DNA of 27,516 nt from a virus. Taxonomy: Duplodnaviria > Caudoviricetes. Both the position numbers and the translations under genes were made by a program. The notes beneath the pieces are model-generated. The model did no database searches, was not told the origin of the DNA, and was given only the letters and a program-made list of their open reading frames with translations. The stretch covers positions 1 through 27,516 of the IMG/VR virus record IMGVR_UViG_3300032181_000503; one strand, written 5' to 3'. Shown here one piece after another: positions 245 to 23,817 of the stretch; position 1 is the first letter of the stretch; every line of letters begins with the position of its first letter.

Positions 245-280
245 ATCCAGAAGAAATTGTCCAGCAGGATTGGGTTAATT

Positions 281-9200: not shown

Positions 9201-10654
9201 TCAATGCTTCGTTCATCACTGGATTTGACTTTGATAATAGCGGAACTCTAGATCCTACATCTAGTGTTACGATCAATGATAGTTCTATCTTGACGATTGT
9301 TGCTGATGGCACTGATATTGTTACAGTCAACTGGAACAGTGAAACTAACGATAGTGTTGGTGCTGATTACGGTGAGTTTATTACAATCGCTGGCACGAAC
9401 ATTGTTGGTCTGAATGGTACGTGGCCAATTCAAGGTGGCATCACTGGAACTGCTTCTTCTCTTCAAATCAAGACAAGTCAGTATGTTTCCACAGGAACTT
9501 ACATCTGGTCTGATCAGGTAGCAGCTGCTGAACTTAAGATCAACAGCGGCGCTGGTCTCCTCGCAGATAGTGTTGATGTTAGAATCGGTGTTGCAGAATT
9601 TGGTGGTGTTCTAACCACCAGTGATTACCTGCTCCTATCTGATTCTGAAATCGTCAAGGTTTCTGAATTGGTATCTACCGATATTCAGTCCCTGGTTGTT
9701 ACAGACGGTGGTGATCCTGAAGTTGAGGTATTCAAGGTTGAGTCTACAACTGGTAACACATTTGTAGGCAACACGCTATCGGTCGGACAAGGATTTAACA
9801 AGTTCGTTGTTGATGGTGGAACTGGTGATACCGTAACTCAAGGTAAACTAACCACTAATGATTCTCTGACGGTAAGAGGATCTGTTGTAGAACTGACCCA
9901 GTTCTTCACTCTAACTAACGGTGGATCCCAGAACATCGCTGAAAGAAACACGCTCCGTGTTGACACCGCAACTGGTGATCTTGAGATCTATGGCGGTGAC
10001 TTCAATATCTTTGGACCTGATGGCACTACACCACGTCTTCAGTTCAGCAATTCTTCGGGTGACTTTACTACCTACGGTTCGTTCTCTGCTCTAGGAACAG
10101 GAACATCAACATTCGGTGGTAGCATTGTTGCTGGTGGTGATCTGACTCTCAATGGTGGTGATCTAACAGTCAACTCTGATGGCAATAAGATCTTCTCGGT
10201 TGAGAATGATGGTGCTGTCAATATCGCTGGCATTAGCAACTACTTCTCACAAACTGGTGGACGTAAGTGGGAGTACAGCGACAACTTTGTAGTTGAGGCA
10301 GAAGCAAACGTTAACTACTTCCTCAATGTTACTCAAAATACCGTTGTTAAACTACCTACAAACGCTCTAATCGGTGACATGATTCGCATCGTGGACATCG
10401 GTGGTCTTCTAACTTATAACCTCACGCTGGTTGTAAGAGCACCATCTACGATTAGAGTACAAAATGCAACCGACAACACAGGAACCACTCTATTGACAGG
10501 TAATACTGCTGACCTAAATGGTTATGATGGTGGTGAACTAGTTGTTCAAACACCTAACGCTGGATTCGCACTAGTATTCGCTGGTACATCTACTCCAGAC
10601 GGTAACACTGCAGTTCCAACAGGAAAAGACGGATGGTTCTTAATCGAGGTCTGA
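281..10654 (+). CDS. Giant virion structural / tail-fibre-like protein (~3,457 aa)
   Basis: Long ORF. The start is more likely ATG 281 (MPLTRLDNL..., typical of giant cyanomyovirus structural proteins) than TTG 257. N-terminal 'LYVSPDD..ATD..DNRGNS..RPFKTIQRA' motif, three KCxRDIG helical repeats, a probable beta-helix segment (SPYVFNCS..GGDMSITNSNSNFG), G/T/S-rich beta repeats, and a C-terminal 'KLP..ALIGDMIRIVDIGG...GW' domain typical of fibre/baseplate attachment. Late promoter upstream. Confidence 0.85.
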   Translation: MPLTRLDNLYSSKTGKYLYVSPDDFNATDELDNRGNSPLRPFKTIQRAFLEVARYSYLPGKDNDRFDQFSIMLMPGNHFIDNRPGLVDTANPESRYFDSGNLIEANKQLIIDRSAAEIFVQHPDFFHPGDNQTDDGSRYADAYRLIQLNRQEIIDTSWTELQNGPTPVDAAYETKCKRDIGEYIDALSLDIALAGGNRYTRKYLKTYFNEAGTQFIEDSLEDETAESIVAFNKARDLMIDAFQNNLTITDDTITADPNGAPLCADVASMLGTLAAIVETVLTDGNLSQLPAETVTDHETPGEQKCKRDIGFVVDGVLADIRNGGNSNIISVAKTYFDREGNPLADGIVGEEAESITAYNKARDMMKLAVTNSLYDKDLTISPGPAIAGANTPDIEYGASGNPGTCIDVQTNIQTLMTILTDVINAGSLSALASVQVTGVVPVFDYNRALQEWQDDSILDLGNPDNVLYKFNSTEGGCIVPRGCSLIGYDLRRTIIRPLYVPDPVDGDQERTGIFKLTGGCYLWQFTIKDGDLSENSPLYDQADKVGKVYYKQNSTDLKIPEYSHHKICIMTYAGNDELDRFYEKVGRAFAQFQPTIDDGELEALVQETRIVGPLSDTRTVEQIEVVDIPGTSTSRLTVTTKIEHGYFKGQYIAVINSGLSDEVNGTFKVENIDDNNPKVFEYIIPITAAGLGLVSGTTYTTANGLGTSAVIQAEIDSVESASPYVFNCSIRSTWGQCGMWADGSKATGFKSMVVAQYTGVSLQKDDRAFIRYDRFTNTWNQASLTDAFATIPYHTKGDAYWKDDWRNFHIRASDDSFIQCVSVFAVGFHDHFLMESGGDMSITNSNSNFGNTSLHSIGFKGFAFNQDKGGYIDAIIPPKVVNTNQEAIKKNAYYTLDIEASNDVANDTKLYLAGDINVDPATRPAASIDGYRIGAKQDDRLYVKLPSGGVGGKQTYHGTLEPSGITTYRASLSTLTPSNLNVLFDLDGDGNDDFNKAYDAANLIEKNRDYLAQETYGYITDLYPALLTNQSLTITKCERDIGFITDAVVKDLRVGGNINTVYAAESYISGGNVSYVDGELTETLIAYDYLKRLIFGVIRNGTLLIKNCTTSTSSTNVIVGDTSGLVPGMQVNEYAESDFTNGLLNEGAVPLGTNLLGGSPLIIGQIVNATTIVLTDPNTGQTYQPQQDSTTAWLYFENSNIYSGAQRVIDLSITQDDTYPECTNIASAIEGYFDVVNLVLNGNANQVTRVEPIIESSALIGRATVFTIDTGLGQTDPHGFQTGTPVRLVPRATNAGVDKRLVRLPRGFETNRPYYVIAPGRDTYPNSFNNTSEFDNTAGTKLMLAATKENAAAGIYIYSSETESMSPDVELLVQQQVLDESYDLHRYVCNVSGIYIETDIPHVFDVPVPNVPAQTIFFATSGDASSQLPTISGAGDVATDVYYYPRFITKTKFSVHTTQADAQAGTNAVIFTSGSGSDFIVYGNKKTSPLKYDPVDFQRWYLNVKPESAGGLDPNAILTRFHQSDFVDGTGNLFTPDTWYERILDERPALDRIYRLRYVLPQYLQTVREPLNGYVIKTRTDDRRRLKPQKFYLEPFSNGAPDVAQFFNPARAGEQLGLSLADLDAANVDVSGGFYDPYENPLQIEFESKIATTIQSARTIEVDPQGTGTLVDRLELTVFDHTIINQQLKNEIFTVIEIGTPQGAGIQTSIYNSDDSNYVSWTGYCSGSAYVHAYYQADATAFVILKNITGKLDYSGNSATTFVQNNGTFFNLSGYPDAYPTTLSRSNRKNYLYRIEGANVYTVVPGDKITTPGGDTYTVTTLEDVPEIDDTFYIFDVETIQEQIPLQQDGIYYLTCVRGNISPYPLGAGVGTNFHYYRFSQPISNLYPLDYKNDPLWFQINVDTGSRDATVLDPPASAAAADNYVHGLVTLNDYKFSETKEAIVDLTRTLPFSGFDYTNTTSDLNSVILDNRIQAQEGNASVGSENRQIPISGDSVYPLDRRFYTELRRPSIARSGNHTFEYLGFGPGNYSTGFPLRQEVVLSDKQDFYAQAKREDAGIVFYTGLNSNGDLYIGNRKINAITGEETFLEQAVLEDSGDDDEGIGALVTTFDTAVTFNDKVTIEGDTFLNNPVTINVDPLEGDALRILSLVDTGDDPTQDRSSFRDTRDGDVIITKNQVDAAVYKFNPRGNVNDPGQGYSWRTHYTGGLPSNTSPDNTGLLADGQGGTAFYTLQNISYGSSILPSSGDVLYKGLEVGSSGSMGWVYSNFFTELADNQIFTIASNNTSELTITWAAGLDNAGLGIRVGEKLRISNFSNSFFNGSWAVLAGGFSSSGNTCKIRIFNEIAQNVYTWADEGPGAKMEISKSRWKETGVIGAETLRTRTEVPGDYRLGINTVGRMAKEGVLTASVTAETDPRSNLDVVGNAFISGKALVTYDGVGAVTANNYLAEPSVGKTYFALTNAFLVGGDSADPDDFATLRVATSDLAVADQSSTYRTGGRVGVNTSIGLDASTELDRNFVVIGDSRFSGNITAQDDLSVDGGDINSTAETFRFLTENVDFLIAASDAESFNIGNNTTSDQLINIGNNVSDTSSHTLRIGANAGVTTFEVHKRSTNAFVDIASVEDVVGAACSIKIGGAAPNLNSQTLIGTYQTKLNGTLEVGAFAGTSTTRIFTTAATLNVGDGQNTTRVTLGANSSTVDIAALGGRTTIRNSLLVQGSTTSNSTIKLSGGLNAGIIEIERSRFGTTPSEHIVGSLDNPNITFLKYIQLGRQIDTAGVGPWGGDQYLLSGGQIAAIDNITPEQSATWVANETYSFIQPTGGTGSGALFTVQVLSDGTADITLVSPGSGYSDNDLLTIEASKLGNSNGADLSFRVNGTNDSGNVYLLPITRPSVNDFQIGDLLFIERDTAVDGQDTNISPVGEEYSELLEVAGLTNISDPADPLGFRILVTRAKDGTTARTDHPDNAIISKFDKQINASFITGFDFDNSGTLDPTSSVTINDSSILTIVADGTDIVTVNWNSETNDSVGADYGEFITIAGTNIVGLNGTWPIQGGITGTASSLQIKTSQYVSTGTYIWSDQVAAAELKINSGAGLLADSVDVRIGVAEFGGVLTTSDYLLLSDSEIVKVSELVSTDIQSLVVTDGGDPEVEVFKVESTTGNTFVGNTLSVGQGFNKFVVDGGTGDTVTQGKLTTNDSLTVRGSVVELTQFFTLTNGGSQNIAERNTLRVDTATGDLEIYGGDFNIFGPDGTTPRLQFSNSSGDFTTYGSFSALGTGTSTFGGSIVAGGDLTLNGGDLTVNSDGNKIFSVENDGAVNIAGISNYFSQTGGRKWEYSDNFVVEAEANVNYFLNVTQNTVVKLPTNALIGDMIRIVDIGGLLTYNLTLVVRAPSTIRVQNATDNTGTTLLTGNTADLNGYDGGELVVQTPNAGFALVFAGTSTPDGNTAVPTGKDGWFLIEV

Positions 10655-10658
10655 TTTA

Positions 10659-12014
10659 ATGTTTTATCAGGAAGCAAAAACAGCAAGATCGGCGGTGGTT
10701 GGCACCATCATGCCGTGGACGGGGGGATTAAGTAGCATCCCTCCTGGGTGGATTCTATGTGATGGTGGTGTTGTAGATGCAGCAGATTATCCACTGCTTA
10801 CACAAGCTATTGGTAATACATATGATGCTTTGGGGGGATCTATTACAGGCAATTTCCCTGCTTATACTGGAACGGTCAAGTTACCTGACTTGAATGAAAA
10901 AACATTGATGGATATTGAATCGAGTTACTTCGCTCCCGTTGCAAATGGTGGTACAGGTAGAGATGCAGACATAGATTCTGATGCTCTCACCATCATCTCA
11001 CCAATCATTGGAGAACATGATGACAATGGTATTACAATTTCACCAACAGATGTTACTGTTGATGTTTTGTTTAATATAAACGCTGGTGATAGAACTGGAT
11101 ATTCAGGAAAGATCACGGGTAATACAAAAGAAGATGGAGAAGGTGTTGCAACGGTTTACATCGGTCCTAGAAAATTAGGAAGAAAGCACATTAAGAGACA
11201 TAACCATCCAGGAACATATCCAACACTGGATGATCAAAACCGAAAAAGACCTGGTAGAGGTGTTTCTGCATTCGAGAATATTAAATATACACTATATCAC
11301 TCACACGTTGATAACGAGGGTGGTGGTGATCAAGGTGATACCTACTACTTTGGTTGGACTAGTGAAACTGCTGGTGATGGTAGCGCAGGTACAGTTGATG
11401 AACGCCCTGGTATTGCAATCGGAGATGCAACGTCAATTCCAAGTGGTCAAGAACTTGACTATACACTAACTTGGCCAGAAGCAGGTGATGTTATACCTGA
11501 TGGACATGGTGGTGGAACGCAAGGTGTTGTCGTAGCACACGTAATATCCGAGAGTCCTCCTGTTAACTTGAAACCTAAAGACCTTTTATCAACTCCTATT
11601 TCAACTCAATTTAAGGTAACTAATTTGAGACCTGAAGGACCATTTCTAGATTCAGGTAGAGCAGTTCCAGCAGCTTCTAGAGGCGGTAGTTTGAATATTC
11701 CCACTGGATTTACAAATTACTATGATGATAACAACCAAAACGCATCACAACTTCGTGATACACTGATGAGTCATATTGGACTCAATTTTACAAACACTGA
11801 ACCTGGTGGTGATTTCATTGAAGCTCATGACCATGGAGAATTTGATGTTGAGTTTGATTCATCTGGATTGAGACCCAATAGTAGTATTGTATGTGAGGTT
11901 AACCTTCCAGCAACAGTCAATGTAGATAATACACAGAATGAAAAAGCATTGCAAATTGACGTGAACATCGCACAACCAACTCTTTCTTGCATATACATCA
12001 TCAGAGCATACTAA
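10659..12014 (+). CDS. Tail-collar domain fibre protein (451 aa)
   Basis: N-terminal collar motif VGTIMPWTG..IPPGWILCDG..DYPLL..IGNTY..LPDL; HxH motifs (RHNH, AHDH); C-terminal YIIRAY. Confidence 0.85.
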   Translation: MFYQEAKTARSAVVGTIMPWTGGLSSIPPGWILCDGGVVDAADYPLLTQAIGNTYDALGGSITGNFPAYTGTVKLPDLNEKTLMDIESSYFAPVANGGTGRDADIDSDALTIISPIIGEHDDNGITISPTDVTVDVLFNINAGDRTGYSGKITGNTKEDGEGVATVYIGPRKLGRKHIKRHNHPGTYPTLDDQNRKRPGRGVSAFENIKYTLYHSHVDNEGGGDQGDTYYFGWTSETAGDGSAGTVDERPGIAIGDATSIPSGQELDYTLTWPEAGDVIPDGHGGGTQGVVVAHVISESPPVNLKPKDLLSTPISTQFKVTNLRPEGPFLDSGRAVPAASRGGSLNIPTGFTNYYDDNNQNASQLRDTLMSHIGLNFTNTEPGGDFIEAHDHGEFDVEFDSSGLRPNSSIVCEVNLPATVNVDNTQNEKALQIDVNIAQPTLSCIYIIRAY

Positions 12015-12015
12015 A

Positions 12016-12933
12016 ATGGGAAAGTCTATATCTACTAATTACGCCAGACAGAAATCTCACTGGGGTGGTGTTCCTGGAACTATTCAGATTCATACCGTTC
12101 CTGGTATGGGATTTAATAATGATCCTACTACTGCAGTGTTTAAAGATAACCTGCCTGGTGGATTTTTAAGATGTAATGGTGCTATTTTAAATGCAAAAGA
12201 TTATCTGCTATTGTCTAGAATTTTAGGTGTAGGCACTGAATGTAGATTTGCAAAACCAAATGCTATTCTGCGCGATCCTGATCCTGAAACAGGAGATCTT
12301 GGATCATTTCAGTTACCTGATCTAGGATCTAAAGTTATGATTGGTGGTAGAGGATCGGGTGAATACCGTGAGACAACCTTGAGCAATAAACCCAACCAAA
12401 ACAAGGTTGGTGTTGAGGTTACGCCAAACACACCACTTGGTGAAAGATTGATTACAAACTATATCTCCAATACTGGAGACGGCATGAAAGTTACGGCGCA
12501 ATCAAGTATTGATTTTAGGGGTAATCTTAAGTTTAACATGCCTAGGAATGTTGAGCCTACTATCATTTCGATTGAACAGTTCCAAGCACACCAACATGAC
12601 GCTGATTTGCGTATTTTGAATACTACATCTGATGGTTATAATACTGATGGGGATGGACTTACTGGTGACGCTGATTCGGCATTTGATGCAAACGTAGAAG
12701 CACAAAACATCCTAGATGAAACTCAACCAAATGTGCCAAGAGGTTCGGTTCAACACGATCATAGAATTACAAAACCTTTTACTTACAGTAATAACTTCAC
12801 TTATTCATTCCCAGCTACGAACGTACCGTTGGATGACATGGAATCATATATCGATGTTGATACAACCAACTTGGAGGTTTTGAATCAAGTGGTAACTCCA
12901 TTCATCATGGTACACTATATCATCAAGTTCTGA
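12016..12933 (+). CDS. Tail-collar domain fibre protein (305 aa)
   Basis: PGTIQ..LPGGFLRCNG..DYLLL..FQLPDLG collar motif; HxH motifs (AHQH, QHDH); C-terminal HYIIKF; starts 1 nt after the previous stop. Confidence 0.8.
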   Translation: MGKSISTNYARQKSHWGGVPGTIQIHTVPGMGFNNDPTTAVFKDNLPGGFLRCNGAILNAKDYLLLSRILGVGTECRFAKPNAILRDPDPETGDLGSFQLPDLGSKVMIGGRGSGEYRETTLSNKPNQNKVGVEVTPNTPLGERLITNYISNTGDGMKVTAQSSIDFRGNLKFNMPRNVEPTIISIEQFQAHQHDADLRILNTTSDGYNTDGDGLTGDADSAFDANVEAQNILDETQPNVPRGSVQHDHRITKPFTYSNNFTYSFPATNVPLDDMESYIDVDTTNLEVLNQVVTPFIMVHYIIKF

Positions 12934-12934
12934 T

Positions 12935-14446
12935 ATGGCTACGTATAACAATACCTACACGTATAGTAGCAGTCAGCGTTTAAGATCAGATGTAAAGCAA
13001 GTTAATTACATTACTGTTGCTGGTGGTGGTGGCGGAGCCCGCCCTAATGCTGGTTTTGGTAGATCTCCTAATAATGGTCAAGATACTAGACTGAACACCA
13101 CAGGATTATGGTCGCAGGGTGGTAGACATGGAGAACTAAATCGTGGTGGTTATGGTGGATATGGAAACTACAGTTATGGTAGGAATGGTCAGATTAACTA
13201 TTCTGGTGGTCAGTATCAACGTGCTGCATCTGGTTATGGACCATATGGATCTGGTGGTGCAGGACAGTGGAGATCGCCTAGTTTAACTGGTGGTGGTGGC
13301 GGTGGTGGTGCCTCGCGCTCAACATACTATCGAGGATCGAGTGGTGCTATCGCTGGTCAAAGAGTATATTGGACGATCGGGCAAGGTGGTACACAAGGTG
13401 GTAATGGTAATAGAAGAAGGGGTGACAATGGGGCAATCTACATCTCTCAAACTACATATGACCGCCCTTCTGCTAGCATAAGTGCAAGCCCAACTAGTAT
13501 TGTTTTGGGGAACAGCAGTACATTATCGTGGAGCTCAAGTGGAGATATTAATTCAGTTAATGTGCAGCCTGGTATTGGAAATGTAAGCACAAGCGGATCA
13601 TTTAATGTCTCTCCAGCCTCTACGACTTCATATACAATTACGGCATCTAATCCAGCATATACAACAACTGATACTGTCACAATTACTGTATTGATTCCCC
13701 CGCAAGTTAATATGACTGTTGACGATCCTACTATTGTCTTGGGAGAGAGCACTACCTTGAGATGGAATGTTACTGGTGATGCTAATAATATGACGATTGA
13801 CAACGGAATTGGAACCTCTAACCTTGTTGGTCAGCAAGTAATTACACCAACATCAACCATAGTTTATACAGGAACTGCTACTGGTCCTGGTGGAACAGGT
13901 AGTGACACTGCGGTTGTTACAGTATTGCCACCACCAACATTGAGTGTTTCTGGTCCAATTGTGGTTGGATATGAAGATCCAATGCCTTTTAGTATAGAAG
14001 CAACAAATGCACCAGGTGGTATTAGTTATGTCTATTCACAGGTTAATACTGACGGTAGTACAGAAGCCGTGACAACTCCAGTAACAATCCCAGGTAGCAC
14101 TGGAGATTTGGTTAACATCACTGATTTTGAATTCACTCCTGTATATGATAACTTTGGACCATCGTCGGTGACAATTACTTTCACTGCCAATGGATATGGT
14201 GGACTGCTAGCACAAGAAGTAGAAGTAATTCCTGTCAATATTGACCAGACTCCTAATGCTATTGATATTCCCTCAACTGAAGATAAGTTGAGAGATGAAG
14301 AACCTGTTATCACACCTAACGTTGAGGTTACAACCGAACAGATTGTAGTTGAGGATATTGATATCCCTGTTGAGATTAAGTCTGACTATCCTATTCAAGT
14401 TGAGATCGAGAATAGTGATGTCTGGTATGATGTGAGGGAGATCTAA
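12935..14446 (+). CDS. Adhesin-like paralog 1: glycine-rich head + 3 Ig/PKD-like domains + conserved 71-aa C-terminal module (503 aa)
   Basis: Head has AGGGGG / GGGGGGGAS / TIGQGG motifs. Ig-like repeats begin PSASISASPTSIVLG..TLSW, PPQV..TIVLGESTTLRW and PPTLSVSGP. The C-terminus PVNIDQTP..VREI is shared with the next three genes. Confidence 0.8.
   Translation: MATYNNTYTYSSSQRLRSDVKQVNYITVAGGGGGARPNAGFGRSPNNGQDTRLNTTGLWSQGGRHGELNRGGYGGYGNYSYGRNGQINYSGGQYQRAASGYGPYGSGGAGQWRSPSLTGGGGGGGASRSTYYRGSSGAIAGQRVYWTIGQGGTQGGNGNRRRGDNGAIYISQTTYDRPSASISASPTSIVLGNSSTLSWSSSGDINSVNVQPGIGNVSTSGSFNVSPASTTSYTITASNPAYTTTDTVTITVLIPPQVNMTVDDPTIVLGESTTLRWNVTGDANNMTIDNGIGTSNLVGQQVITPTSTIVYTGTATGPGGTGSDTAVVTVLPPPTLSVSGPIVVGYEDPMPFSIEATNAPGGISYVYSQVNTDGSTEAVTTPVTIPGSTGDLVNITDFEFTPVYDNFGPSSVTITFTANGYGGLLAQEVEVIPVNIDQTPNAIDIPSTEDKLRDEEPVITPNVEVTTEQIVVEDIDIPVEIKSDYPIQVEIENSDVWYDVREI
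14231..14446 (+). repeat. Conserved 216-nt (71 aa + stop) C-terminal module, copy 1 of 4
   Basis: PVNIDQTPNAIDIPSTEDKLRDEEPVITP...; gap-free homologs at 15580-15795, 17256-17471 and 18815-19030. Confidence 0.95.
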
Positions 14447-15795
14447 TGCCACAGATTAGTATTTCATGGGCTAGAAACGCAGGCGATAGTAACTACCTAT
14501 ATGGTATGCCTGGTGGAACCATTGGTCCCAATGGTGGTAGTAGAACTGCGAATGTTGGGTGGAACCAGGTATTTAATCTATCTGCTAATGGCAGTGGTCC
14601 TGGCAATGTTGCTATGAGAAGATTAAATAGTCAGACTTTAGGTTTAGATGATAGACAAGGAGCTGGCGCTGATGGTGACTTCAATGACATGCTCATATAT
14701 GTCAATGGTGGACAATTTATTAATGATAGTCAGTATCAAGGTCCAATTGCTATCTATGGTTGTACTAATTCAGGTGCGATTAACTACAATCCTAACGCAG
14801 ATCTTGATGATGGTAGTTGCATAGTTGTCAATCCAATACTAAATCTTGACGCTAGTTCTACCAGTATTATTTTGGGTAATAGCACTACGCTATCTTGGTC
14901 TGCTAGCGATTCGCAGTATATACAAGAAGCTACCGTTGATCCTGTGCCTGGTGCTGTAAATACATCTGGAAGTGCTGTTGTTACGCCAATAGAGACGACA
15001 ACATATTTCTATACTGTTAGATGGGCAAATGGAACTAGACAAACGCAGCGTACAGTTACGGTACTAATACCACCACAAATTACGGTATCATTAGATAATA
15101 ATCCGATTATTCAGGGAGAGACCACCACATTACGGTGGAGCACTACTGGTGATGCTTCTACCATGACTATTACTCCTGGTATTGGTGCAACTAATTTGTC
15201 TGGTGCTCAAGCAGTAACACCAACACAAGACACTACCTATACTCTTACCGCTAGTGGACCTGGTGGTACAGATACTGAACAGATTACTTTAACTGTCATT
15301 CAACCACCAGAACTAGATTTAACTGGTCCTCTTGCAATACCTTACGGTCAATCTACTGTTGATTTTTCATATGAAGCAGTAAATGCATTGAGCATAGATG
15401 TATCAATAATACAGAGAGATCTAGACAACAGTGATGATTTCTTCACCGATACTGCTACAACTGATGGTAGTGTATATACATATACACCAACGTGGGGCAA
15501 TAGAGGACCACAATCAATTCTGGTCACAATGACTGCTAATGGGCAAGGTGGACTGCAAACAGTAAGACAAGCTACCGTACCTGTTAATATTGATCAGACT
15601 CCAAATGCTATTGATATTCCATCAACAGAAGATAAATTACGTGACGAAGAACCAGTTATTACGCCTGATGTTGAGGTAGTTAGTGAACAAATTGTAGTTG
15701 AGGATATAGATATTCCTGTAGAGGTAAAATCTAACTATCCAATTCAGGTCGAGATTGATAATTCCAACGTTTGGTATAACGTACAAGAACTATGA
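14446..15795 (+). CDS. Adhesin-like paralog 2: DxDFND (lectin/Ca-binding-like) head + Cys repeat + 3 Ig-like domains + conserved C-terminal module (449 aa)
   Basis: LDDRQGAGADGDFNDM motif; YGCTNSGAINYNPNADLDDGSC repeat; same Ig-like stalk and C-terminal module; TAATG overlap with paralog 1. Confidence 0.8.
   Translation: MPQISISWARNAGDSNYLYGMPGGTIGPNGGSRTANVGWNQVFNLSANGSGPGNVAMRRLNSQTLGLDDRQGAGADGDFNDMLIYVNGGQFINDSQYQGPIAIYGCTNSGAINYNPNADLDDGSCIVVNPILNLDASSTSIILGNSTTLSWSASDSQYIQEATVDPVPGAVNTSGSAVVTPIETTTYFYTVRWANGTRQTQRTVTVLIPPQITVSLDNNPIIQGETTTLRWSTTGDASTMTITPGIGATNLSGAQAVTPTQDTTYTLTASGPGGTDTEQITLTVIQPPELDLTGPLAIPYGQSTVDFSYEAVNALSIDVSIIQRDLDNSDDFFTDTATTDGSVYTYTPTWGNRGPQSILVTMTANGQGGLQTVRQATVPVNIDQTPNAIDIPSTEDKLRDEEPVITPDVEVVSEQIVVEDIDIPVEVKSNYPIQVEIDNSNVWYNVQEL
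15580..15795 (+). repeat. Conserved C-terminal module, copy 2 of 4
   Basis: First 29 aa identical to copy 1; same length. Confidence 0.95.
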
Positions 15796-17471
15796 CAGTA
15801 ACACAGAGTAGATATAGTCCTGGGCAGGTAACTTGGTCTGTCCCAGCAGGTGCCACTAATGTTTCCTTTACTATTGCCGCTGGTAGTGGTGGTGGATCTA
15901 AATCGCCTTCTGATGGTAGTCTGTGGAATCATAGTAGAGGTGGATTTGGTAGAGCTGGTAACTTCACTATCGCACCAAGAAGTGGTTCATACAATCTAAC
16001 ATTTTACATTGGTGGGCAAGGTGGCAATGGAGTAGGACCCCAGAATCCTGGTGGCAGTGGTGGTTCTTCCCCTCTCGCTGGTGGTGGTAGTGGACATAGA
16101 TCTGGTGGAGGCGGTGGCGGCGCTACTGCTGTATACGATAGCTGGCTTGGTAGATATATTGCATGGACTGGTGGTGGCGGCGGTGCTGGTAGATTCGGTC
16201 AGGACACTGGTATCAGTGGGTATTACACTGCTGGTCGTGGTATTGGTGGTGGTGCAACTAGCAGCTCACCCTCGTGGAGAACTGGACAATCTGCTCCTGC
16301 TGGTCACCGTGGTGGCGGTGGTGGAGGATCCACTAGTGGTGGTGCAGGAAGTTTGGGTGGTGCTCAAACTAGCAATGGATATGGTGGTATTGGTGGTAAC
16401 TCTGGTTGGTATAATAATGGAGATATTGGTTGGATTACTAACAGTGGTTATGGAAACTTTGGTAACGGATATGCAGTTCTTACTTATGTAAATCCACCAC
16501 CATCGATTGATACGTTTACTGCTAGCCCCAGCACATTGGTTCTTGGCAATACTTTTCAGTTAAACTGGAGTGTATCTGGTACTGTGAATTCGGTCAACAT
16601 TACTGACGTTGGAAATGTGAATACATCTGGAACTGCTACGATACTACCAGGTGGTGATATCACTTACACAATAACTGCTACTGGTCCTGGTGGAACGGTT
16701 GCAAAGAGTGTTGCCATTGATGTCCATATCCCACCGCAGATTAGTTTCAGTGTTGACAAATCTCAAATTGTTGGTGGAGATACTGCCACTTTAACGTGGA
16801 GTGTTACTGGCGATGCTGATACAATGAGCATCAATCCTGGTATTGGTGGCACCAACCTTTCTGGCACTCAACTTATACAACCATCACAAGACACTACATA
16901 TACTGCTGTTGCTAGTGGTCTTGGTGGTACAGATACTGAACAACTTACTGTTGAGGTTGTATATCCACCTGAAGTTTCCTTGACTGGACCACTATCTACT
17001 GACTATGGTAATGATATAACTTTGACATTTAATGCAGACAATGCTGTTACTTCATTACAGTTGTTGAGAAAGTATGTCAGTCAGGGAAATGTTGACCCAG
17101 ACTGGACATTAGTGGAAAATTTACCGACAGGTCAAAACACATCTGGAACCTTACTATTCTCTCCAGATTATGATAATTTTGGACCAGATGTTGTTCAGTT
17201 CCAGTTATATGCCGTTGGTGAAGCAGGATTGAACGATACTGCTACTTTTGATGCATTCATCAATATTGACAGAACGCCTGATGCTATTGATATTCCTGCA
17301 TCCGAAGATAAATTACGAGATGAAGAACCAGTCATTACTCCTGATGCGGTAGTAACATCAGAACAAATTGTGGTTGATGATATTGATGTTCCTGTTGAGA
17401 TCAAAGCAGATCAACCTATTCAGGTTGAGATAGATGATAGCGGTACATTCCAAGATATTAGGGAGATCTAA
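15792..17471 (+). CDS. Adhesin-like paralog 3: long glycine-rich head + 3 Ig-like domains + conserved C-terminal module (559 aa)
   Basis: TWSVPAGATNVSFTIAAGSGGG..LTFYIGGQGGNG..GGGGGATA..TGGGGGAG, a polyglycine-type domain; same stalk and C-terminus; ATGA overlap with paralog 2. Confidence 0.8.
   Translation: MTVTQSRYSPGQVTWSVPAGATNVSFTIAAGSGGGSKSPSDGSLWNHSRGGFGRAGNFTIAPRSGSYNLTFYIGGQGGNGVGPQNPGGSGGSSPLAGGGSGHRSGGGGGGATAVYDSWLGRYIAWTGGGGGAGRFGQDTGISGYYTAGRGIGGGATSSSPSWRTGQSAPAGHRGGGGGGSTSGGAGSLGGAQTSNGYGGIGGNSGWYNNGDIGWITNSGYGNFGNGYAVLTYVNPPPSIDTFTASPSTLVLGNTFQLNWSVSGTVNSVNITDVGNVNTSGTATILPGGDITYTITATGPGGTVAKSVAIDVHIPPQISFSVDKSQIVGGDTATLTWSVTGDADTMSINPGIGGTNLSGTQLIQPSQDTTYTAVASGLGGTDTEQLTVEVVYPPEVSLTGPLSTDYGNDITLTFNADNAVTSLQLLRKYVSQGNVDPDWTLVENLPTGQNTSGTLLFSPDYDNFGPDVVQFQLYAVGEAGLNDTATFDAFINIDRTPDAIDIPASEDKLRDEEPVITPDAVVTSEQIVVDDIDVPVEIKADQPIQVEIDDSGTFQDIREI
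17256..17471 (+). repeat. Conserved C-terminal module, copy 3 of 4
   Basis: FINIDRTPDAIDIPASEDKLRDEEPVITPD...IREI; same length. Confidence 0.95.
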
Positions 17472-17473
17472 CC

Positions 17474-19030
17474 ATGGGCGCAATGGGCAACCTGCACACC
17501 TTTGATTCGTATTACAACCCCACGGGTGGTGATACTTTTTACACCTCAAATCCTGGTGGAGAGAACTTGGCTGCATACAATTTTGTTGCTAGTAATGTGT
17601 GGAAACTGTTCATGTCTGCTAGCGTCCCAGGTATCCCATATGGTCAATCGGTAGGAACTATCTACAGATTTTATAGCAGCAATCTTGTAGATCACTTGTT
17701 TAAGTTTGGGTCTAGTGTTCCTAGTAGTGATTACTATCTGGAAGGTGCTATTGGAGTTGCATTTACACAGAATGGATCTTATCGTCAACCAGTCTATAGA
17801 TTTTATAATTCTAGTAACGGTGACCACAAGTATAAAACGAGCAGTAATACACCTAGTGGATACGTCTATGAAGGTGTTGCGTGGTACTCTCCAATTCCTG
17901 TCTATGGGTGTAAAGATTCTAGTGCTACCAACTATAATCCATGGGCAAATCAACCAAGCACTGGATGTACCTATATTGTATATGGATGCACTGATCCCAA
18001 TGCTAGTAACTACAATTCTAGTGCTACAAATAATGATGGTAGTTGTCAATACCCCAATCCAACTGTTTCTTTAAGCGTGAGTCCCAATTCAATTATTCAG
18101 GGAGAGAGTGCATCATTGTCATGGAGTACATTTAATTCTACATCACAGTCAATTACAAATATTGGTGGAGTTTCTAGTTCTGGTAATATTAATGTATCTC
18201 CTAGTTCTACAACAACATATACACTCACTGGAAACTATTATGGATATACATCTGCGAGTGTAAGTAGAACTCTCACGGTGTATACACCACCAAGTATTTC
18301 ATTTACTGTGGATGATAGTGAGATTGTTAGATTAGATACTACAATATTACGTTGGAGTGTGAGTGGTAGTGTAAGCACAGTGACCATCAGTCCTGAAATT
18401 GGTTCTACTAATATATCTTCTCAAGCGACTATTTCTCCAACAACAACCACTACATATACTTTGTCTGCAGATGGTCCTGGTGGAGCTGCTAGCGCAACAG
18501 TTACTGTTACTGTAATAGATCCACCATCAGTTTCTCTTAATGGTCCTCTGGCAGTATCTTATGGAGATAACATAACACTCTCCCATGAGATGTCTAGAGC
18601 AACAGCATCATATTTGCTGTACATAGAGGAGACAGATCTTGACGGCAATGTAACTACTCCGTCTGTCAGTCCTGTTGATCTTGGGGCAGGAAATTCCGCA
18701 AATGCTTCTTACACTCATTTAGTTACTTATAATGATAGAGGACCTGCTTCTATACAATACTCACTAACTGGAATTGGTAGCGGTGGATTGACTGATGTGG
18801 ATGTTGTCACTGTACCTATCAATATCGATCAAACACCTAATGCTATACAGATTCCATCATCCGAAGATAAATTGCGTGATGAAGAACCAGTCATTACTCC
18901 TGATACAGAAGTAACAACTGATCAAATTTTAATTGAGGAGATTGATATACCTGTGGAGGTCAAATCTGATTATCCTATTCAGGTTGAAATTGAAAACAGT
19001 GGAACATATATTGAGGTCAGAGAGATCTGA
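17474..19030 (+). CDS. Adhesin-like paralog 4: DUF5648-like repeat head + 2 Cys repeats + 3 Ig-like domains + conserved C-terminal module (518 aa)
   Basis: Three repeats of YRFY....DH....Y.EG type (YYNPTGGDTFYT; IYRFYSSNLVDHLF..YYLEG; VYRFYNSSNGDHKY..YVYEG); two YGCxDxxAxNY repeats; same stalk and C-terminus. Alternative ATG at 17483. Confidence 0.8.
   Translation: MGAMGNLHTFDSYYNPTGGDTFYTSNPGGENLAAYNFVASNVWKLFMSASVPGIPYGQSVGTIYRFYSSNLVDHLFKFGSSVPSSDYYLEGAIGVAFTQNGSYRQPVYRFYNSSNGDHKYKTSSNTPSGYVYEGVAWYSPIPVYGCKDSSATNYNPWANQPSTGCTYIVYGCTDPNASNYNSSATNNDGSCQYPNPTVSLSVSPNSIIQGESASLSWSTFNSTSQSITNIGGVSSSGNINVSPSSTTTYTLTGNYYGYTSASVSRTLTVYTPPSISFTVDDSEIVRLDTTILRWSVSGSVSTVTISPEIGSTNISSQATISPTTTTTYTLSADGPGGAASATVTVTVIDPPSVSLNGPLAVSYGDNITLSHEMSRATASYLLYIEETDLDGNVTTPSVSPVDLGAGNSANASYTHLVTYNDRGPASIQYSLTGIGSGGLTDVDVVTVPINIDQTPNAIQIPSSEDKLRDEEPVITPDTEVTTDQILIEEIDIPVEVKSDYPIQVEIENSGTYIEVREI
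18815..19030 (+). repeat. Conserved C-terminal module, copy 4 of 4
   Basis: PINIDQTPNAIQIPSSEDKLRDEEPVITPD...VREI; same length. Confidence 0.95.
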
Positions 19031-19036
19031 TAAATA
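19029..19036 (+). promoter_or_regulatory. Late promoter GATAAATA upstream of the 1,035-aa gene
   Basis: ATAAATA core overlapping the paralog 4 stop codon, 31 nt before ATG 19068, in the only sizeable intergenic gap of the tail module. Confidence 0.65.
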
Positions 19037-19067
19037 CTACAGAAATTGTGACCATCGCCTGCGTTAA

Positions 19068-22000
19068 ATGACCTTTTCGTTCGGAACTACACCAGTATAT
19101 GTAAGCGAAGGACAAACTATTCGCCTGAAGTTTAAAGCACCTTCGGCGTGGGATACGACCCAGAGTGTAACGGTTCAGATTGGTGATCAGCAAACAATCT
19201 GGTATATCTCTACAGTTCCAGAAGACTTTGCTCCTGATCCATTCCCATTTACACCATTAGATGATGCAACACCAGACGTTATGTACGTCTATGGTGATGG
19301 TACTAGAGCACAAGAAGATATTATTGAGGTTGCTGGTCTAACACCTGGATCATCTGCGAGTGTTTCTCTAGTCTCATCTTATCTTGGAACTAATATTGAT
19401 GACTATTCTGTTCGTATTCAGTTAGTACACCAAGGTGAAGCAGATTTTGGTGACTGGGTTATTCCAACTAGTAATATCTTTGTACAAAATGGTGACAGAC
19501 TTCAGTTAAGACTCAAGTCTAATGATACTGGTGGTCTAACTAGAACTGCTGACCTGACTATTGGTGCAAGAACCGAGAGATGGACGATCACATCAGCGAT
19601 TCAACCACCCAACATTCCAGAACCATTCCCTGACTTTAATGAAATTACTGGTGCTCCAGTTGATGAAGATGTTTATAGCGAGATCTTAAGAGTCACTGGT
19701 CTAAATGCACAGGCAGTGGTCAATACTGATAATAATGCTAGAATTGGTATCTCTTCTAGTAATACTTTCGTTGTAAACGATCTAGGATACAGTGTTCTAG
19801 ATGGTGTTACTTTTGTCGATTCTAGCACCAATCCAACCATTCAGAATGGTGAGTATCTACAGTTAGTATTAACCACTCCAGTAACATCAACTACTACAGT
19901 TACAAACTTGTTAAGCATTGGTGATGCTGTCGCTGGATCTAGTTGGGGTGTTACCACTGGTAGTTTCCCATCAACCACACCACAATCATTCGTATTTACA
20001 GATGAACCAAGTGCAGAAGAAGATGCACTGATTGCGTCTGATGTAAAACCAGTTGGTGGAATCACTGGACTGGGTGCTGGTGTATCTGTACCTGTAACAC
20101 TAGTATCTACAGATGGTACGGAACCAAGAGTTAAAATTTACTATGACGATGGTAGTGAGAGTTCTGTCGGAATCTTCCCTACAGATGTAAGCAACGGAGA
20201 TAGTATTCAGATCTATAACAGATCTAGTGCTACATTCAGTGGTACAGTACAAACTACGATTAAAGTTGGTACACTACAGGTTCCTACATGGTCTATCGTT
20301 ACAAATTCTGGTCCTGATACTGAAGCTGACTTCACAGCACCAGCAAGTCTTACAAATAAAGCTCCCAACAGACAGTATGTTAGTTCTGTTGTTAGTGTTT
20401 CTGGTATCAACAGAGATATTACAATCGCAGGTACAAATAATGTACTGATTTCTATTGACTTTGACGCACCAGTTGAGGGACCAAGAACATTTACACCCTC
20501 CAACAGTAGTGTCCAGTTCTATCTAACTTCTGGTGGTCTTGCAAGCACTGTGAGCACTACTATCGCTATTGGTACTGGCAACAGCAATCAATTTACTTGG
20601 AACGTTTCAACATACGCTGTTGCTCCACCAGCTCCAGAATTACTGGGAACATGGTATAGTAGGAAGAACTCTTACACATATGAAGACTCTAATGGTGATC
20701 TCCAACTACGAAATTCAAAGGATGATGGTCTCGCTATTGGTACAGTTCTTTCCATTCTTAAGCAACCAGGCGGAAGTTATGGTACAATAGATGGTGATCT
20801 AGATTCTAGATATCCTGGTTTCATTGAGTGTGATGGCAGAAGTCTTTCTAAAGATTCTTATGGAGATCTATTTGCTGTCATCGGATATACTTATGGTGGT
20901 TCTGGTGCTAACTTCAATGTTCCAGATTATAGAAACAGGAAACTCACTGGTTGTGGTGTTGTTGATGGAAATAGAGCATCTTCTGCTTTCTTACCAACAA
21001 ACAATATCAATGAACCAGGTAACATTGGAGGATGGTGGTACATTGATAAGGTAGACGTTGCTGGTGATAATCCTTATGAGCAGATCATTGGTACTGGTAA
21101 CACAGGTAACGAGAGTAACTTCTTTAACTTTGGTACAGTAAAGACCCAGTTCAACGCACCTATCGAAGCTGACATTGAGTTTTCTGTTGCTGGTACAGTA
21201 ACGGCACAGATTGGACAGTTGCAGGAGAAACTAATTGATGTTCCTGTACACACTCACCTATACGTTAGTGCCATCACTGATGATGTTGGTTCAACAGGTT
21301 TGATTCCATGGGACACTCAAGTTCTAGCTAGTCCTGGTGCCTTTGAAAACAGCACTCCACTTGGAACAACTGGTCTAGGTGCGGGTCCTTATGTTAACTA
21401 CATCGGTGGCGGCGGTACTGACGAACTATTCCGAGAGGAACCTGAAAACTGGTATAACCTATGGATTGCAGAATTAAATGCTACAGTAGGTAGAAATGAC
21501 TTCTCATCTGTTTGGGATGATATTTTATTAACTAATAAAGGAGTTAACTTTAAGGCAGAAATTCTTGAGTGGGTTGGTACTTGGCCAGCTTCACCTCTTG
21601 GTGAGGGCGATCCTGCAGCAAAAGTATCACGTACATTGTCTGCAAAAGTATGGTGGACATCACCTTTTTCCCAGCTTGATAGTGGTGACGTTGAATCTCT
21701 AGATACTCGACTCAACAATATGCAGAGATATCCAGAAGGAGTATATGGTCAAGATCGTACTGGTCAAACCGCTGTTTCTGGTGCTATTGACGTTGAAGGA
21801 AGAAGATTTAGAGTTGAAGCATATACTCCACCAGCAATTCTAGAAGATAGTGATACTACAACCTCTTCTCATAACCACTTGATGGGTCTAACTCCTGTTT
21901 TAGATCCAACCCAAGACTTTAGTTATGGCAACCAGAATGGTCCTGGTTCTTTCAAAGAAGGACTAGGTAGTTTCGGTAGTACGCTTAACGTCACTTTTGA

Positions 22001-22175
22001 TAATAATCAATTCAATGGTAATACAGCACCTGTTGGTCTTATACTAAATACTGGTACATTTGAGCTCAACCAAAACATTAAGAAACCAATTCCTAGTGTC
22101 ACTATGGAACCCAATAGACAGGTTCCTGTCATTGAGGAGTTCCACAAAGTCAAATATATAATTAAAGCATACTAA
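19068..22175 (+). CDS. Fibre protein: orphan half-repeat + four beta-sandwich repeats + tail-collar/needle domain (1,035 aa)
   Basis: Four ~110-125-aa repeats of the form D..P..F.F......V.G(L/I)......(V/I).NGD.(L/I)Q.......IG.....W.(I/V)T; collar motif AIGTVL..YPGFIECDGR..YGDLFAVIGYTYGGSGANFNVPDYR; HxH motifs (VHTH, SHNH); C-terminal KYIIKAY. Confidence 0.85.
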   Translation: MTFSFGTTPVYVSEGQTIRLKFKAPSAWDTTQSVTVQIGDQQTIWYISTVPEDFAPDPFPFTPLDDATPDVMYVYGDGTRAQEDIIEVAGLTPGSSASVSLVSSYLGTNIDDYSVRIQLVHQGEADFGDWVIPTSNIFVQNGDRLQLRLKSNDTGGLTRTADLTIGARTERWTITSAIQPPNIPEPFPDFNEITGAPVDEDVYSEILRVTGLNAQAVVNTDNNARIGISSSNTFVVNDLGYSVLDGVTFVDSSTNPTIQNGEYLQLVLTTPVTSTTTVTNLLSIGDAVAGSSWGVTTGSFPSTTPQSFVFTDEPSAEEDALIASDVKPVGGITGLGAGVSVPVTLVSTDGTEPRVKIYYDDGSESSVGIFPTDVSNGDSIQIYNRSSATFSGTVQTTIKVGTLQVPTWSIVTNSGPDTEADFTAPASLTNKAPNRQYVSSVVSVSGINRDITIAGTNNVLISIDFDAPVEGPRTFTPSNSSVQFYLTSGGLASTVSTTIAIGTGNSNQFTWNVSTYAVAPPAPELLGTWYSRKNSYTYEDSNGDLQLRNSKDDGLAIGTVLSILKQPGGSYGTIDGDLDSRYPGFIECDGRSLSKDSYGDLFAVIGYTYGGSGANFNVPDYRNRKLTGCGVVDGNRASSAFLPTNNINEPGNIGGWWYIDKVDVAGDNPYEQIIGTGNTGNESNFFNFGTVKTQFNAPIEADIEFSVAGTVTAQIGQLQEKLIDVPVHTHLYVSAITDDVGSTGLIPWDTQVLASPGAFENSTPLGTTGLGAGPYVNYIGGGGTDELFREEPENWYNLWIAELNATVGRNDFSSVWDDILLTNKGVNFKAEILEWVGTWPASPLGEGDPAAKVSRTLSAKVWWTSPFSQLDSGDVESLDTRLNNMQRYPEGVYGQDRTGQTAVSGAIDVEGRRFRVEAYTPPAILEDSDTTTSSHNHLMGLTPVLDPTQDFSYGNQNGPGSFKEGLGSFGSTLNVTFDNNQFNGNTAPVGLILNTGTFELNQNIKKPIPSVTMEPNRQVPVIEEFHKVKYIIKAY

Positions 22176-22190
22176 TATTATTTTATTGTA

Positions 22191-22874
22191 ATGGCAGAAC
22201 AAGGCATCCCTCCTTATCGTCCCCTGAAACTGATGAAGGATCCAAAAATCACCAAGTTTGATTTTACGGATTTTATTGGTGTATGGGAAAACTTCGTACC
22301 CCCTAATCTATGTGATCAACTCATTGATTATGGAGATAGAGTTCTAAATGAAGACGTGTCGTCGGTCATTGATCTAGAACTAGATGATGATGCAACAGAC
22401 GCTGATAGAGTCCCTATGGTGGGTTCTGAAATGTACGGATCTTCATATACTAGAGAAGATAAGTCTTTCATGCTAAATTATGCATCATCGAAGTTCACTA
22501 TGAACGTCAATCAGATGTTGAAATCTTGTGCTTCTCATTACTGTACGCATTATTCGACACTGAAGAAGACTAGGATGGTGTCTACTGATATCAAGTTCCA
22601 AAGAACTCCTCCTGGTGGTGGATATCATGCATGGCATTATGAGAATGGTACGTTTGAGTGCGCTGCCCGTGAATTGGTATGGATGATTTACTTGAATGAC
22701 ATCGAAGAGGGTGGCGAAACAGAATTTATGTATCAGAAACGTAGAATCAAACCTACTCAAGGCACGATGGTTATTTTCCCCGCTGGCATGACACACGTTC
22801 ATAGGGGCGGTTTTCTTCTTGGCGACAAGAATAAATACATAGTAACAGGTTGGTATATGAAAACCCATGGCTGA
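22191..22874 (+). CDS. 2OG-Fe(II) oxygenase (prolyl-4-hydroxylase-like), 227 aa
   Basis: GGYHAWHYE (HxE), MIYLNDIEEGGETEF, IFPAGMTHVHRG, KYIVTGW. Confidence 0.9.
   Translation: MAEQGIPPYRPLKLMKDPKITKFDFTDFIGVWENFVPPNLCDQLIDYGDRVLNEDVSSVIDLELDDDATDADRVPMVGSEMYGSSYTREDKSFMLNYASSKFTMNVNQMLKSCASHYCTHYSTLKKTRMVSTDIKFQRTPPGGGYHAWHYENGTFECAARELVWMIYLNDIEEGGETEFMYQKRRIKPTQGTMVIFPAGMTHVHRGGFLLGDKNKYIVTGWYMKTHG
22830..22837 (+). promoter_or_regulatory. Possible internal late promoter AATAAATA
   Basis: ATAAATA core 29 nt before ATG 22867, similar spacing to the other two late promoters. It lies inside a coding region, so a chance match is possible. Confidence 0.4.
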
Positions 22875-23817
22875 TATCGAAACAACTATTAGGAGAAGTG
22901 TTTTGGAGATTGATCTCCTGAACAGTCTTGTGATTGACGCTACTCATATTCTCGATCTACCTAATGGTACAAAGATCAATCAACCAATCAAAATCCTTCC
23001 TGATGTTATGGAAAGATTTAAGACAGAGGTTGTTGGTGACACATTTCACACGGAAGGTGATGAACTACAGCATGTTATTTTCTATAGTGATGACACTGCA
23101 ATTATCCAACGTAGAAAGTTAAAGTACGATTTTGCGACAGATTCAGCAACTGCAGTGCAGTACATCTTTAACGGTGCTACAACAGAGCAAATTCTGGCAC
23201 TAAAAGCGAGAGTGATAGATCTAATTTCTGCTTCTCGTGTTGTCAGAGAGAAACAGATCCAGAATAAGATCGTTAAAATTTCTGAAGAGCAACTATTTTA
23301 TGATGTCAAGATGAATAAGAGGCTAGAAGAAAGAAAAGCAATGCTGAAGGGTTCTGACTGGCGTGTTCTTCCTGATATTGAAGATTCTTACGAAGGTGAG
23401 AAGGAGATGTGGAAGAAGTGGAGAAAAACACTTCGAGAAATGGACGTGTTCACTGCTACATATGAGGACAATCTTGCTCTCTTCAAAGCACTTCATCATA
23501 TGAAGTGGCCAATCGATCCATCAATCTTTAGACAAGCATTTCCAGATGGTGTAGATATCGATGGCAATCCCGTTGAATATCTCGGAACAGATGATCAGTG
23601 GACAAAAAGAGACATTGACGCATCTAAAGACTATGTTGGTGATAGAATGGCTAGTGTCATTGAGTGGAGAGATAGATCGACTAATGCGAAGAGAAACGTA
23701 GCACAGTCTGTTGAGGAACTAATGAAACTGATGCGTGTTGAGGATTTCGTTGAAAATGGTATTGACTATTCTGAATTTTACGATGAGGAAGATATAAATG
23801 ATTTGGCAACTGAATGA
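22867..23817 (+). CDS. Protein with tail-fibre assembly chaperone-like domain (316 aa)
   Basis: R..MLKGSDWRVLPD....WKKWRKTLREM...WP matches the R..LL..SDW....D..W..YRQ.LRD...WP pattern of phage tail assembly chaperones. Confidence 0.65.
   Translation: MADIETTIRRSVLEIDLLNSLVIDATHILDLPNGTKINQPIKILPDVMERFKTEVVGDTFHTEGDELQHVIFYSDDTAIIQRRKLKYDFATDSATAVQYIFNGATTEQILALKARVIDLISASRVVREKQIQNKIVKISEEQLFYDVKMNKRLEERKAMLKGSDWRVLPDIEDSYEGEKEMWKKWRKTLREMDVFTATYEDNLALFKALHHMKWPIDPSIFRQAFPDGVDIDGNPVEYLGTDDQWTKRDIDASKDYVGDRMASVIEWRDRSTNAKRNVAQSVEELMKLMRVEDFVENGIDYSEFYDEEDINDLATE

Follow-up and report, generated by a model that had tools for sequence, protein, structure and literature searches.

How might several different tip proteins be held by a single fibre protein? 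This question is raised by a stretch of 27,516 nucleotides (nt) from a tailed virus (IMG/VR record IMGVR_UViG_3300032181_000503; hereafter the window, with all positions those of this stretch), which gene order and family matches identify as part of a T4-like cyanophage tail cluster. In this cluster, all of whose genes lie on the + strand, a 3465-amino-acid (aa) giant fibre is followed by a 451-aa and a 305-aa collar-domain protein, four paralogs between 449 and 559 aa long, a collar-domain protein of 1035 aa, an oxygenase and a tail chaperone-like gene. The open reading frames (ORFs) of the four paralogs, here called tips (503, 449, 559 and 518 aa, at 12935-19030), and of the 1035-aa protein, here called the fibre (19068-22175), were verified. 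An initial annotation of the window had proposed that the fibre opens with only the second half of a repeat, that every tip ends in only the first half of the same repeat, and that the two fold in trans, so that any of four adhesins could dock on one arm. We think it probable that the tips are indeed attached in this way: the C-terminal module of a tip (the plug) and the N-terminal orphan half of the fibre (the socket) would fold together into a fifth repeat, fastening interchangeable tips on one arm socket.

Tips and fibre carry complementary halves of one repeat

The arm of the fibre consists of four complete repeats (aa 52-177, 181-298, 301-413 and 416-516; 19221..20615, with the individual repeats at 19221-19598, 19608-19961, 19968-20306 and 20313-20615), and is preceded by the socket, fibre aa 1-50 (19068..19217). 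In 31/31 non-redundant fibres these first 50 residues matched the second half of the repeat profile only (hidden Markov model (HMM) positions 67-116 of 116, 19-29 bits), and when profiles were aligned to each other with hhalign the orphan matched the second half of the internal-repeat profile with P=3.9e-10, confirming the four full repeats and the second-half-only N-terminus.

The plugs are located by profile alignment at 14231..14443, 15580..15792, 17256..17468 and 18815..19027 in tips 1 to 4, respectively. Compared with the first half of the internal repeats, a narrow set, the module reached P=0.06, and compared with repeat 4 alone, using 143 modules, it reached P=7.4e-4, a value that none of 120 column shuffles attained and that was better than those of all 14 control segments (best control P=0.006). 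The 23-aa ungapped alignment between a plug and repeat 4 (20391-20459) reported in the initial annotation is real, with four identities and eight hydrophobic pairs in register. When the repeat-4 HMM was run on 761,059 residues of non-fibre ORFs, 3.6% of which are modules, the modules held 40/40 distinct matches of at least 10 bits and 117/124 of at least 6 bits; since the modules are interrelated, these matches represent one signal seen repeatedly.

The correspondence became clear with repeats from outside this lineage. For this comparison a profile of 104 columns was built from 55 complete repeats of Sf-CH1b-, Sf-FR1- and S-SCSM1-type proteins, many of them near-duplicates, whose selection had relied on the profile of internal repeats, without use of the module. 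Module residues 4-64 aligned to columns 5-57 (P=5.3e-7; score 37.6 vs 14.3 for the best of 100 shuffles), and orphan residues 8-52 to columns 60-104 (P=2.2e-9). The claim that the tips end in a first half only thus stands, weakly against their own repeats and clearly against those of other lineages, and the HMM check that had been proposed for complementary half-matches returned the module as the first half and the orphan as the second. In ACG-2014e, the sequence from the module of the last tip across the spacer into the orphan matches a complete-repeat profile as a single repeat containing 3 stops (profile positions 2-110, E=8.7e-7). Judging by the strand list of repeat 4, each half probably has about four strands, with a share in both sheets.

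Charge had also been offered as an argument for the joint. The count on which it was based, 19 D/E vs 4 K/R in copy 1, is correct, but it has no value as evidence: acidity is shared by every internal first half (mean net charge -3 to -9), the acidic and basic residues of the orphan balance (3 D/E and 3 K/R; mean net charge in the family -1.1), and the basic strand of the orphan is no richer in K/R than that of repeat 1 (2.25 vs 2.31). Charge complementarity was rejected as evidence on these grounds.

The two halves occur together and are the best-conserved segments

The module was found in 49 of 50,697 phage records (16 of them named phages), and 49/49 of these also had the orphan-headed fibre, as a functional pairing of the two across genomes had been expected to show; the repeat arm was found in 53 of the records. 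The orphan followed by four repeats opens 120/120 of the fibre homologs listed, and a module lies upstream of the fibre in 130/130 fetched loci with at least 400 nt of upstream sequence (a redundant set, in which some contigs are repeated). Within the fibre, the orphan is the best-conserved segment, with a mean majority frequency of 0.77 vs 0.58-0.71 for the other segments measured; within the tips it is the module (0.71 vs 0.34-0.61 for head and stalk), and variability there peaks at the N-terminus (0.34).

After dereplication on the first 300 fibre residues, 50 complete arrays were obtained, which contain 1 to 6 modules each and two or more in 44/50 cases. The plug had been described as C-terminal, which needed correction: relatives hold plugs inside chains, so the plug needs no free C-terminus. 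Poly-tip ORFs (L006:8592-13961, L086:4883-9958, L131:3159-9938 and proteins P0121-P0130) contain 2-4 intact plugs, each followed by an acidic, Gly/Pro-rich linker of 40-70 aa; these ORFs are candidate polyproteins, whose chains may be cleaved, bridge several fibres or use one plug. One such chain is gp032 of ACG-2014e. Four other loci (L142:6856-9267, L143, L150 and L152) have a single internal plug followed by a 278-aa Gly-rich domain, with heads on both sides of the plug. Nor is adjacency of tip and fibre required, because unrelated genes, two of them oxygenase-like, are inserted between the last tip and the fibre in L114 (1384-2004), L123 (9382-9972) and L151 (7368-7811).

The repeat itself extends beyond these arrays. 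A 2032-aa protein (P0131) with a Flp/Fap pilin-like start (PF04964, precomputed) contains about 15 complete copies of the arm repeat, which suggests that this domain also occurs in bacterial surface proteins.

Relatives in which the arm is cut elsewhere

In Sf-CH1b (L157:6592-14705) it is the tips that have the complete repeats: each of the two contains three full copies plus a fourth that breaks off at profile position 100-101 of 112. The last strand, which is lacking there, has its counterpart in a short strand, ending in W-S-V-S-T, with which the 555-aa collar protein opens. The same layout is present in 10/10 related viral loci (L159-L168; tips ending at profile position 98-101 of 112) and in all 5 metagenome loci whose junction was translated (8 fetched; L176-L181 are among these loci), although all these count as one lineage because they are 81-96% identical to Sf-CH1b. 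Since the tips and the collar protein complement each other here as well, this arm has a second point of division, once more with matching pieces, and again with one copy of the piece on the fibre and several on the tips.

A further arrangement is seen in Sf-FR1 and five related loci (L169-L173), where the fibre opens with the orphan half. In 6/6 Sf-FR1-type loci a headless plug gene of 58-59 aa lies directly upstream of this orphan-headed fibre (in Sf-FR1, L156:9055-9231); it matches the module with P=3.3e-9 and is a possible cap or folding aid. The tips of this type contain one intact domain, whose halves match the module (P=2.2e-6) and the orphan (P=6e-7). Their fibre has a Gly-rich head covalently joined to four repeats and the collar (HMM, 32-52 bits, with high composition bias; shuffled and reversed controls gave less than 8 bits, and BLASTP with the tip 3 head was of no use on the Gly-rich composition), and this order of head, repeats and collar resembles the fused ancestor that our model needs. 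Two ORFs of 304 and 333 aa overlap at L156:5225-7133, where relatives have one tip of ~630 aa, which looks like a frameshift or a sequencing error. In S-SCSM1 (L158:13356-17393), a 1345-aa virion protein shows the opposite order, with the arm repeats N-terminal and a Gly-rich head C-terminal, and at its start ~17 residues may represent a final strand by itself.

These variants bear on what we regard as the strongest alternative, an unlikely one all the same: the two halves would be relics of a gene fission that have since acquired separate partners, the module binding another virion protein or oligomerising, and the orphan anchoring the fibre to the baseplate or pairing with neighbouring orphans. 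The C-terminal region of the fibre is gp12-like, and fibres of the T4 gp12/gp37 type attach by their N-termini; moreover, the invariant orphan residues P25 and W28 are absent from the internal repeats, and the Sf-FR1-type tips end in a different conserved segment that does not significantly resemble the module. Set against this are the two different cut points, each of which gives exactly complementary pieces, and the core hydrophobic positions, which are retained in both halves. In ACG-2014h and S-H9-1, the three collar genes are adjacent, there are no tips and the third collar protein is without any arm; since these tipless relatives lack the whole arm, it is unneeded for anchoring the collar protein. 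Finally, the searched complete genomes had one orphan each (with a loose first filter), and no further second half with which a plug could pair was found elsewhere in them.

The complete repeats are predicted to be Ig-like domains

AlphaFold2 (AF2) models of single chains gave the complete immunoglobulin-like (Ig-like) domains a predicted local distance difference test score (pLDDT) of about 81-97, while both the orphan and the module were of low confidence. In the fibre (98 sequences), aa 52-516 form four all-beta domains with pLDDT mostly 81-93 per 10-residue block, and aa 1-50 form a single hairpin with pLDDT 46-71. Tip 4 (57 sequences) is modelled as a compact head and three Ig-like domains, with pLDDT 88-97 over aa 171-450, followed by 68 nearly unstructured residues at 40-60, a range that covers plug 4.

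In VIA structure comparisons, the arm repeats, which are all-beta, two-sheeted and ~100 aa long, matched Ig-like folds with Z 6-8.6, the best being repeat 4 against 3zmr_B (Z 8.6, root-mean-square deviation (rmsd) 2.2, 82 aligned); because these Z values are middling, we assign the arm to the Ig-like fold class only. Tip 4 matched tandem Ig domains such as 2rjm_A (Z 10.5, rmsd 4.1, 241 aligned), and the C-terminal part of the fibre matched T4 gp12 (1ocy_A; Z 9.7, rmsd 3.1, 75 aligned) and gp37 (2xgf). No Pfam family was found for the arm repeat, and no solved relative was found by sequence for either the repeat or the module. Foldseek with the whole fibre returned only generic tandem-Ig matches with low template modelling scores, and in the ESM Atlas repeat 4 matched unnamed clusters and the module gave no match. 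A prediction of the complex between fibre aa 1-52 and the plug gave scores of 0.02 and 0.01 (mark, 0.32; 78 and 64 alignment rows; controls not folded), which we count neither for nor against the joint.

Plugs of one genome tend to resemble each other

If several tips share one type of socket, their plugs should be alike within a genome. Among 90 modules of 28 dereplicated genomes, the nearest neighbour lay in the same genome in 54/90 cases, vs 19/90 and 13/90 for the adjacent stalk segments, and for 62/90 modules the similarity to others of the same genome exceeded that to the module on the best stalk ortholog. The four plugs of the window share 47-61 of 71 residues and are not recent copies, because 27-48% of the codons for the same residue differ. 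This likeness within genomes could also come from recombination between paralogs, and one contig joint does lead from plug 3 into plug 4. Modules and orphans co-diverge, with a partial r of 0.30-0.37 vs -0.03 and -0.08 for the stalk segments.

The heads that these plugs carry are of different classes. Tip 1 (12935..14446; phrog_2155) has a Gly-rich head, with 26% Gly in the first 170 aa, an Ig-like stalk and the plug; tip 2 (14446..15795) has a head with a weak DUF4114 family match and one Cys pair, a stalk and the plug; tip 3 (15792..17471) has a Gly-rich head, a stalk and the plug; and tip 4 (17474..19030) has a DUF5648 head (PF18885, E=4e-12) with two Cys pairs, the three Ig-like domains of its model (aa ~195-450) and the plug.

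Alike plugs under unlike heads are also relevant to a second alternative, in which the joint is real but the tips form no mixed receptor set: one tip would dominate or each would have a fixed position, and host recognition would fall to the collar needle, the heads having an accessory adhesive or decorative role. The tips are dispensable to the extent that some arrays have a single plug and some phages have no tips at all, family searches found no head of a characterised ligand-binding family among the tips of the window, and the collar heterotrimer of a related virophage itself binds Synechococcus cells (PMC12724248). We nevertheless judge this alternative improbable, given that two to six plugs are kept in 44/50 complete arrays and that the plugs are alike within a genome while the head classes differ. 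The tips are also likely to be co-expressed, because a promoter motif rarely separates them (2/163 upstream regions), which counts against it as well.

Tip and fibre are separate genes

This promoter-like motif, ATAAATA, precedes 51/64 distinct fibre starts vs 2/163 tip starts. In S-PM2, NATAAATA is given as the late promoter (PMC2984593). In the window ATAAATA opens the 37-nt spacer between tip 4 and the fibre (19030..19036), and the only other copies (238-244 and 22831-22837) stand directly before the giant fibre and the chaperone gene. An inverted repeat at 14476-14507/19034-19065 (75% match) was taken as chance. Near-identical sequence is present in seawater and marine metagenome runs, and two further samples, neither of them flagged as a possible source of the stretch, yielded contigs that run across the junction of tip 4 and the fibre with no differences.

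Homologs with tip and fibre fused in one ORF, which had been suggested as a check, were not found: there was no fusion through the plug in 120 near-length homologs or in 10 long tips (all poly-tip chains), and a search of proteins of 1813-5000 aa, a weak negative, returned one match, an unrelated repeat protein. That tip and fibre are nonetheless joined covalently, by readthrough, frameshift or a DNA rearrangement that puts a plug in frame with the orphan, is very improbable, because, although the ACG-2014e spacer happens to be in frame and the 68-77% nucleotide identity among modules would suffice for recombination of tips, the promoter motif precedes most fibre starts, the last tip-fibre spacers of 26-60 nt carry stops and fall in all three frames (21/13/12 of 46, these being the spacers below 100 nt among 51 distinct ones), and none of the 15 contig joints listed, of 26 in all, connects a plug to a fibre start.

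The surrounding tail cluster

By gene order and full-length homology the window belongs to the Kyanoviridae tail cluster of phrog_2155 and phrog_4924. S-CAM3, S-CAM1, S-PM2 (p220-p228), Syn1, S-CAM4 and ACG-2014e have the same order and proteins, with 32-48% identity in the fibre; S-CAM3 has 6 tip paralogs, S-CAM1, S-PM2 and Syn1 have 3 each, and S-CAM4 and ACG-2014e have 2 each, within a range of 1 to 6 among the relatives. Their annotations read 'virion structural protein' and 'short tail fiber/gp12' and are silent on a split domain or docking.

The giant tail fibre (257..10654; phrog_4527/phrog_529) contains no repeat or half-repeat match; its C-terminal ~130 aa (10262-10651) form a gp34-N-like domain, by a profile match to 9x3r_M, the N-terminal repeats of T4 gp34 (E=1.3e-5). 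Sequence 5' of 257 may hold a tRNA-like element. The two collar-domain proteins that follow are without an N-terminal arm: the 451-aa protein (10659..12014; phrog_4591) has PF07484 with E=8e-11 and three HxH motifs, and the 305-aa protein (12016..12933; phrog_4714) has PF07484 with E=0.0016, below the cut-off, and two HxH motifs. The third is the fibre itself, whose collar and needle region (20700..22175; PF07484, E=5e-13; phrog_4924) is T4 gp12/gp37-like. The three collar genes are different from each other, are always found together and have two or three HxH motifs each.

Downstream of the cluster lies the tail assembly chaperone-like gene (22867..23817; phrog_4697, E=2e-91), which is kept in the loci of named phages. 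Three 2OG-Fe(II) oxygenase genes at 22191-24978 flank it, the first two positionally conserved in named phages; these enzymes are possible modifiers of tail proteins.

Discussion

The architecture that we propose would have arisen when an ancestral head-stalk-arm-collar gene split, after which the tip gene was duplicated and the heads diversified. A tip would be fastened non-covalently through the fifth repeat at the end of the four-repeat arm, and all plugs of one genome would fit one socket type. Because they do so in this model, competition would be expected among co-expressed tips, and a virion, having several copies of the fibre, would bear a mixed set of tips. With less confidence, we suggest that the 1035-aa protein may combine with the 451- and 305-aa proteins into a collar and needle heterotrimer with one arm per trimer, that this heterotrimer may dock on the giant fibre through the gp34-N-like domain at the C-terminus of the latter, and that host surface polymers may be bound by the variable heads (Gly-rich, DUF5648 and weak DUF4114). 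The adhesin role and the mixed receptor specificity put forward in the initial annotation are only inferred, and some complete arrays have the plug in single copy.

A wider reading, to which we give slightly less than even credence, is that the split Ig-like domain is a universal coupling at the protein level, in which one socket on the single arm of a heterotrimeric fibre takes any of up to six heads. Identical genomes would then produce different head mixtures, bet-hedging host binding without any change of DNA; the coupling would have evolved at least twice, with different cut points, and the headless plug would cap or tune the socket.

Several points weigh against a joint made of plug and orphan. 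All the support comes from sequence comparison and single-chain models, with no measurement found in print, and database labels are the basis for placing the tips in the virion. The similarity between module and repeat is modest within the family (P=7.4e-4), and a P of 0.006 is obtained when Ig domains of the tip stalk are compared with the other half of repeat 4. No charge complementarity peculiar to the joint was seen, the low pLDDT of the short termini could equally mean disorder, and the co-divergence is unspecific, the module giving a partial r of 0.28 with the second half of repeat 1. Mixed tips are not universal (a single plug in 6/50 complete arrays), nor is one free tip per socket (11/50 have 2-4 plugs inside single ORFs). 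In the Sf-FR1 type, the C-terminal segments of the tips gave no significant match to the module, local or global (P=0.023), and since they do not match it, the socket there may take the headless plug while the tips dock otherwise.

The closest mechanical parallel is in chaperone-usher pili, where an incomplete beta-sandwich is completed by another chain (donor-strand complementation); TasA fibres reportedly do likewise. The initial annotation had drawn this analogy, and its core, complementary halves of one Ig-like beta-sandwich, is well supported by the profiles, the conservation, the co-occurrence and the three natural variants. The single donor strand is not: in the window the domain is divided about half and half, with the plug covering columns 5-57 and the orphan columns 60-104, and by sequence an acceptor missing one strand is found only in the Sf-CH1b-type relatives, which do have the donor-strand anatomy. 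There is also no usher here, and one acceptor type has several alternative partners. Subunits of the window are not donor and acceptor at once, as tips contain no second half and each searched genome has one orphan; since the half-split tips carry no second half, they do not polymerise.

In function, branched receptor-binding proteins (RBPs) of Klebsiella phages are similar, in that a conserved dock, consisting of an RBP1 branching domain and a conserved RBP2 docking peptide (PMC13352976), hangs variable secondary binding proteins on a primary fibre and allows modular change of host range. Our system differs in that the dock would be a split Ig-like domain instead of a short peptide on a gp10-like domain, lies at the tip C-terminus or internally, and serves Ig-stalked tips, several to one socket type, that are no depolymerase tailspikes. 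The conserved element is a C-terminal or internal module of 70 aa and not a short N-terminal docking peptide; the predicted acceptor is an Ig-like half, and the giant fibre is gp34-N-like at its C-terminus, its tailspike matches (E 0.35) not being significant. For a podophage nozzle with 11 fixed sites, the portion of the account at hand describes a tail protein split in two and two alternative fibre proteins on one scaffold, and no half-domain complementation.

With T4 gp12 and gp37 the fibre shares the PF07484 collar domain, a C-terminal closing strand, HxH metal motifs and the fold match to 1ocy and 2xgf. In other T-even phages the gp38 adhesin, a separately encoded and often Gly-rich tip, sits on gp37. 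Here, in contrast, there are three different collar genes and several tip genes, and the tip is predicted to sit on the N-terminal Ig arm through its own C-terminus. The three different collar genes likely encode a heterotrimer, by analogy with the virophage DSLV2, in which three consecutive collar-domain proteins related to Synechococcus phage tail proteins co-purify 1:1:1 (PMC12724248). Three collar-domain genes likewise lie in one locus in the window, and in ACG-2014h and S-H9-1 they are immediate neighbours; the passages on DSLV2 describe neither an Ig arm nor tips.

We found no description of a split-domain joint between tip and fibre in the full text of the open literature, subscription journals being mostly outside this coverage; the genes are known, and the joint appears not to have been described before. 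Marine cyanomyoviruses are described as having no clear counterpart to several of the T4 fibre genes, with unexplained proteins of the virion proposed to take their place (PMC2984593). In an evolution experiment with S-PM2d, early mutations arose in genes called short tail fibre (PMC9910659).

For the recognition of Synechococcus and Prochlorococcus by cyanomyoviruses of broad host range, the reading proposed here offers a concrete architecture that can be tested in cultured phages, the model phage S-PM2 included. If it is true, phenotypic mixing of tips is predicted within a single phage clone, and these phages would possess a natural two-part protein coupler of about 70 + 50 aa or, in Sf-CH1b, of a domain and one strand.

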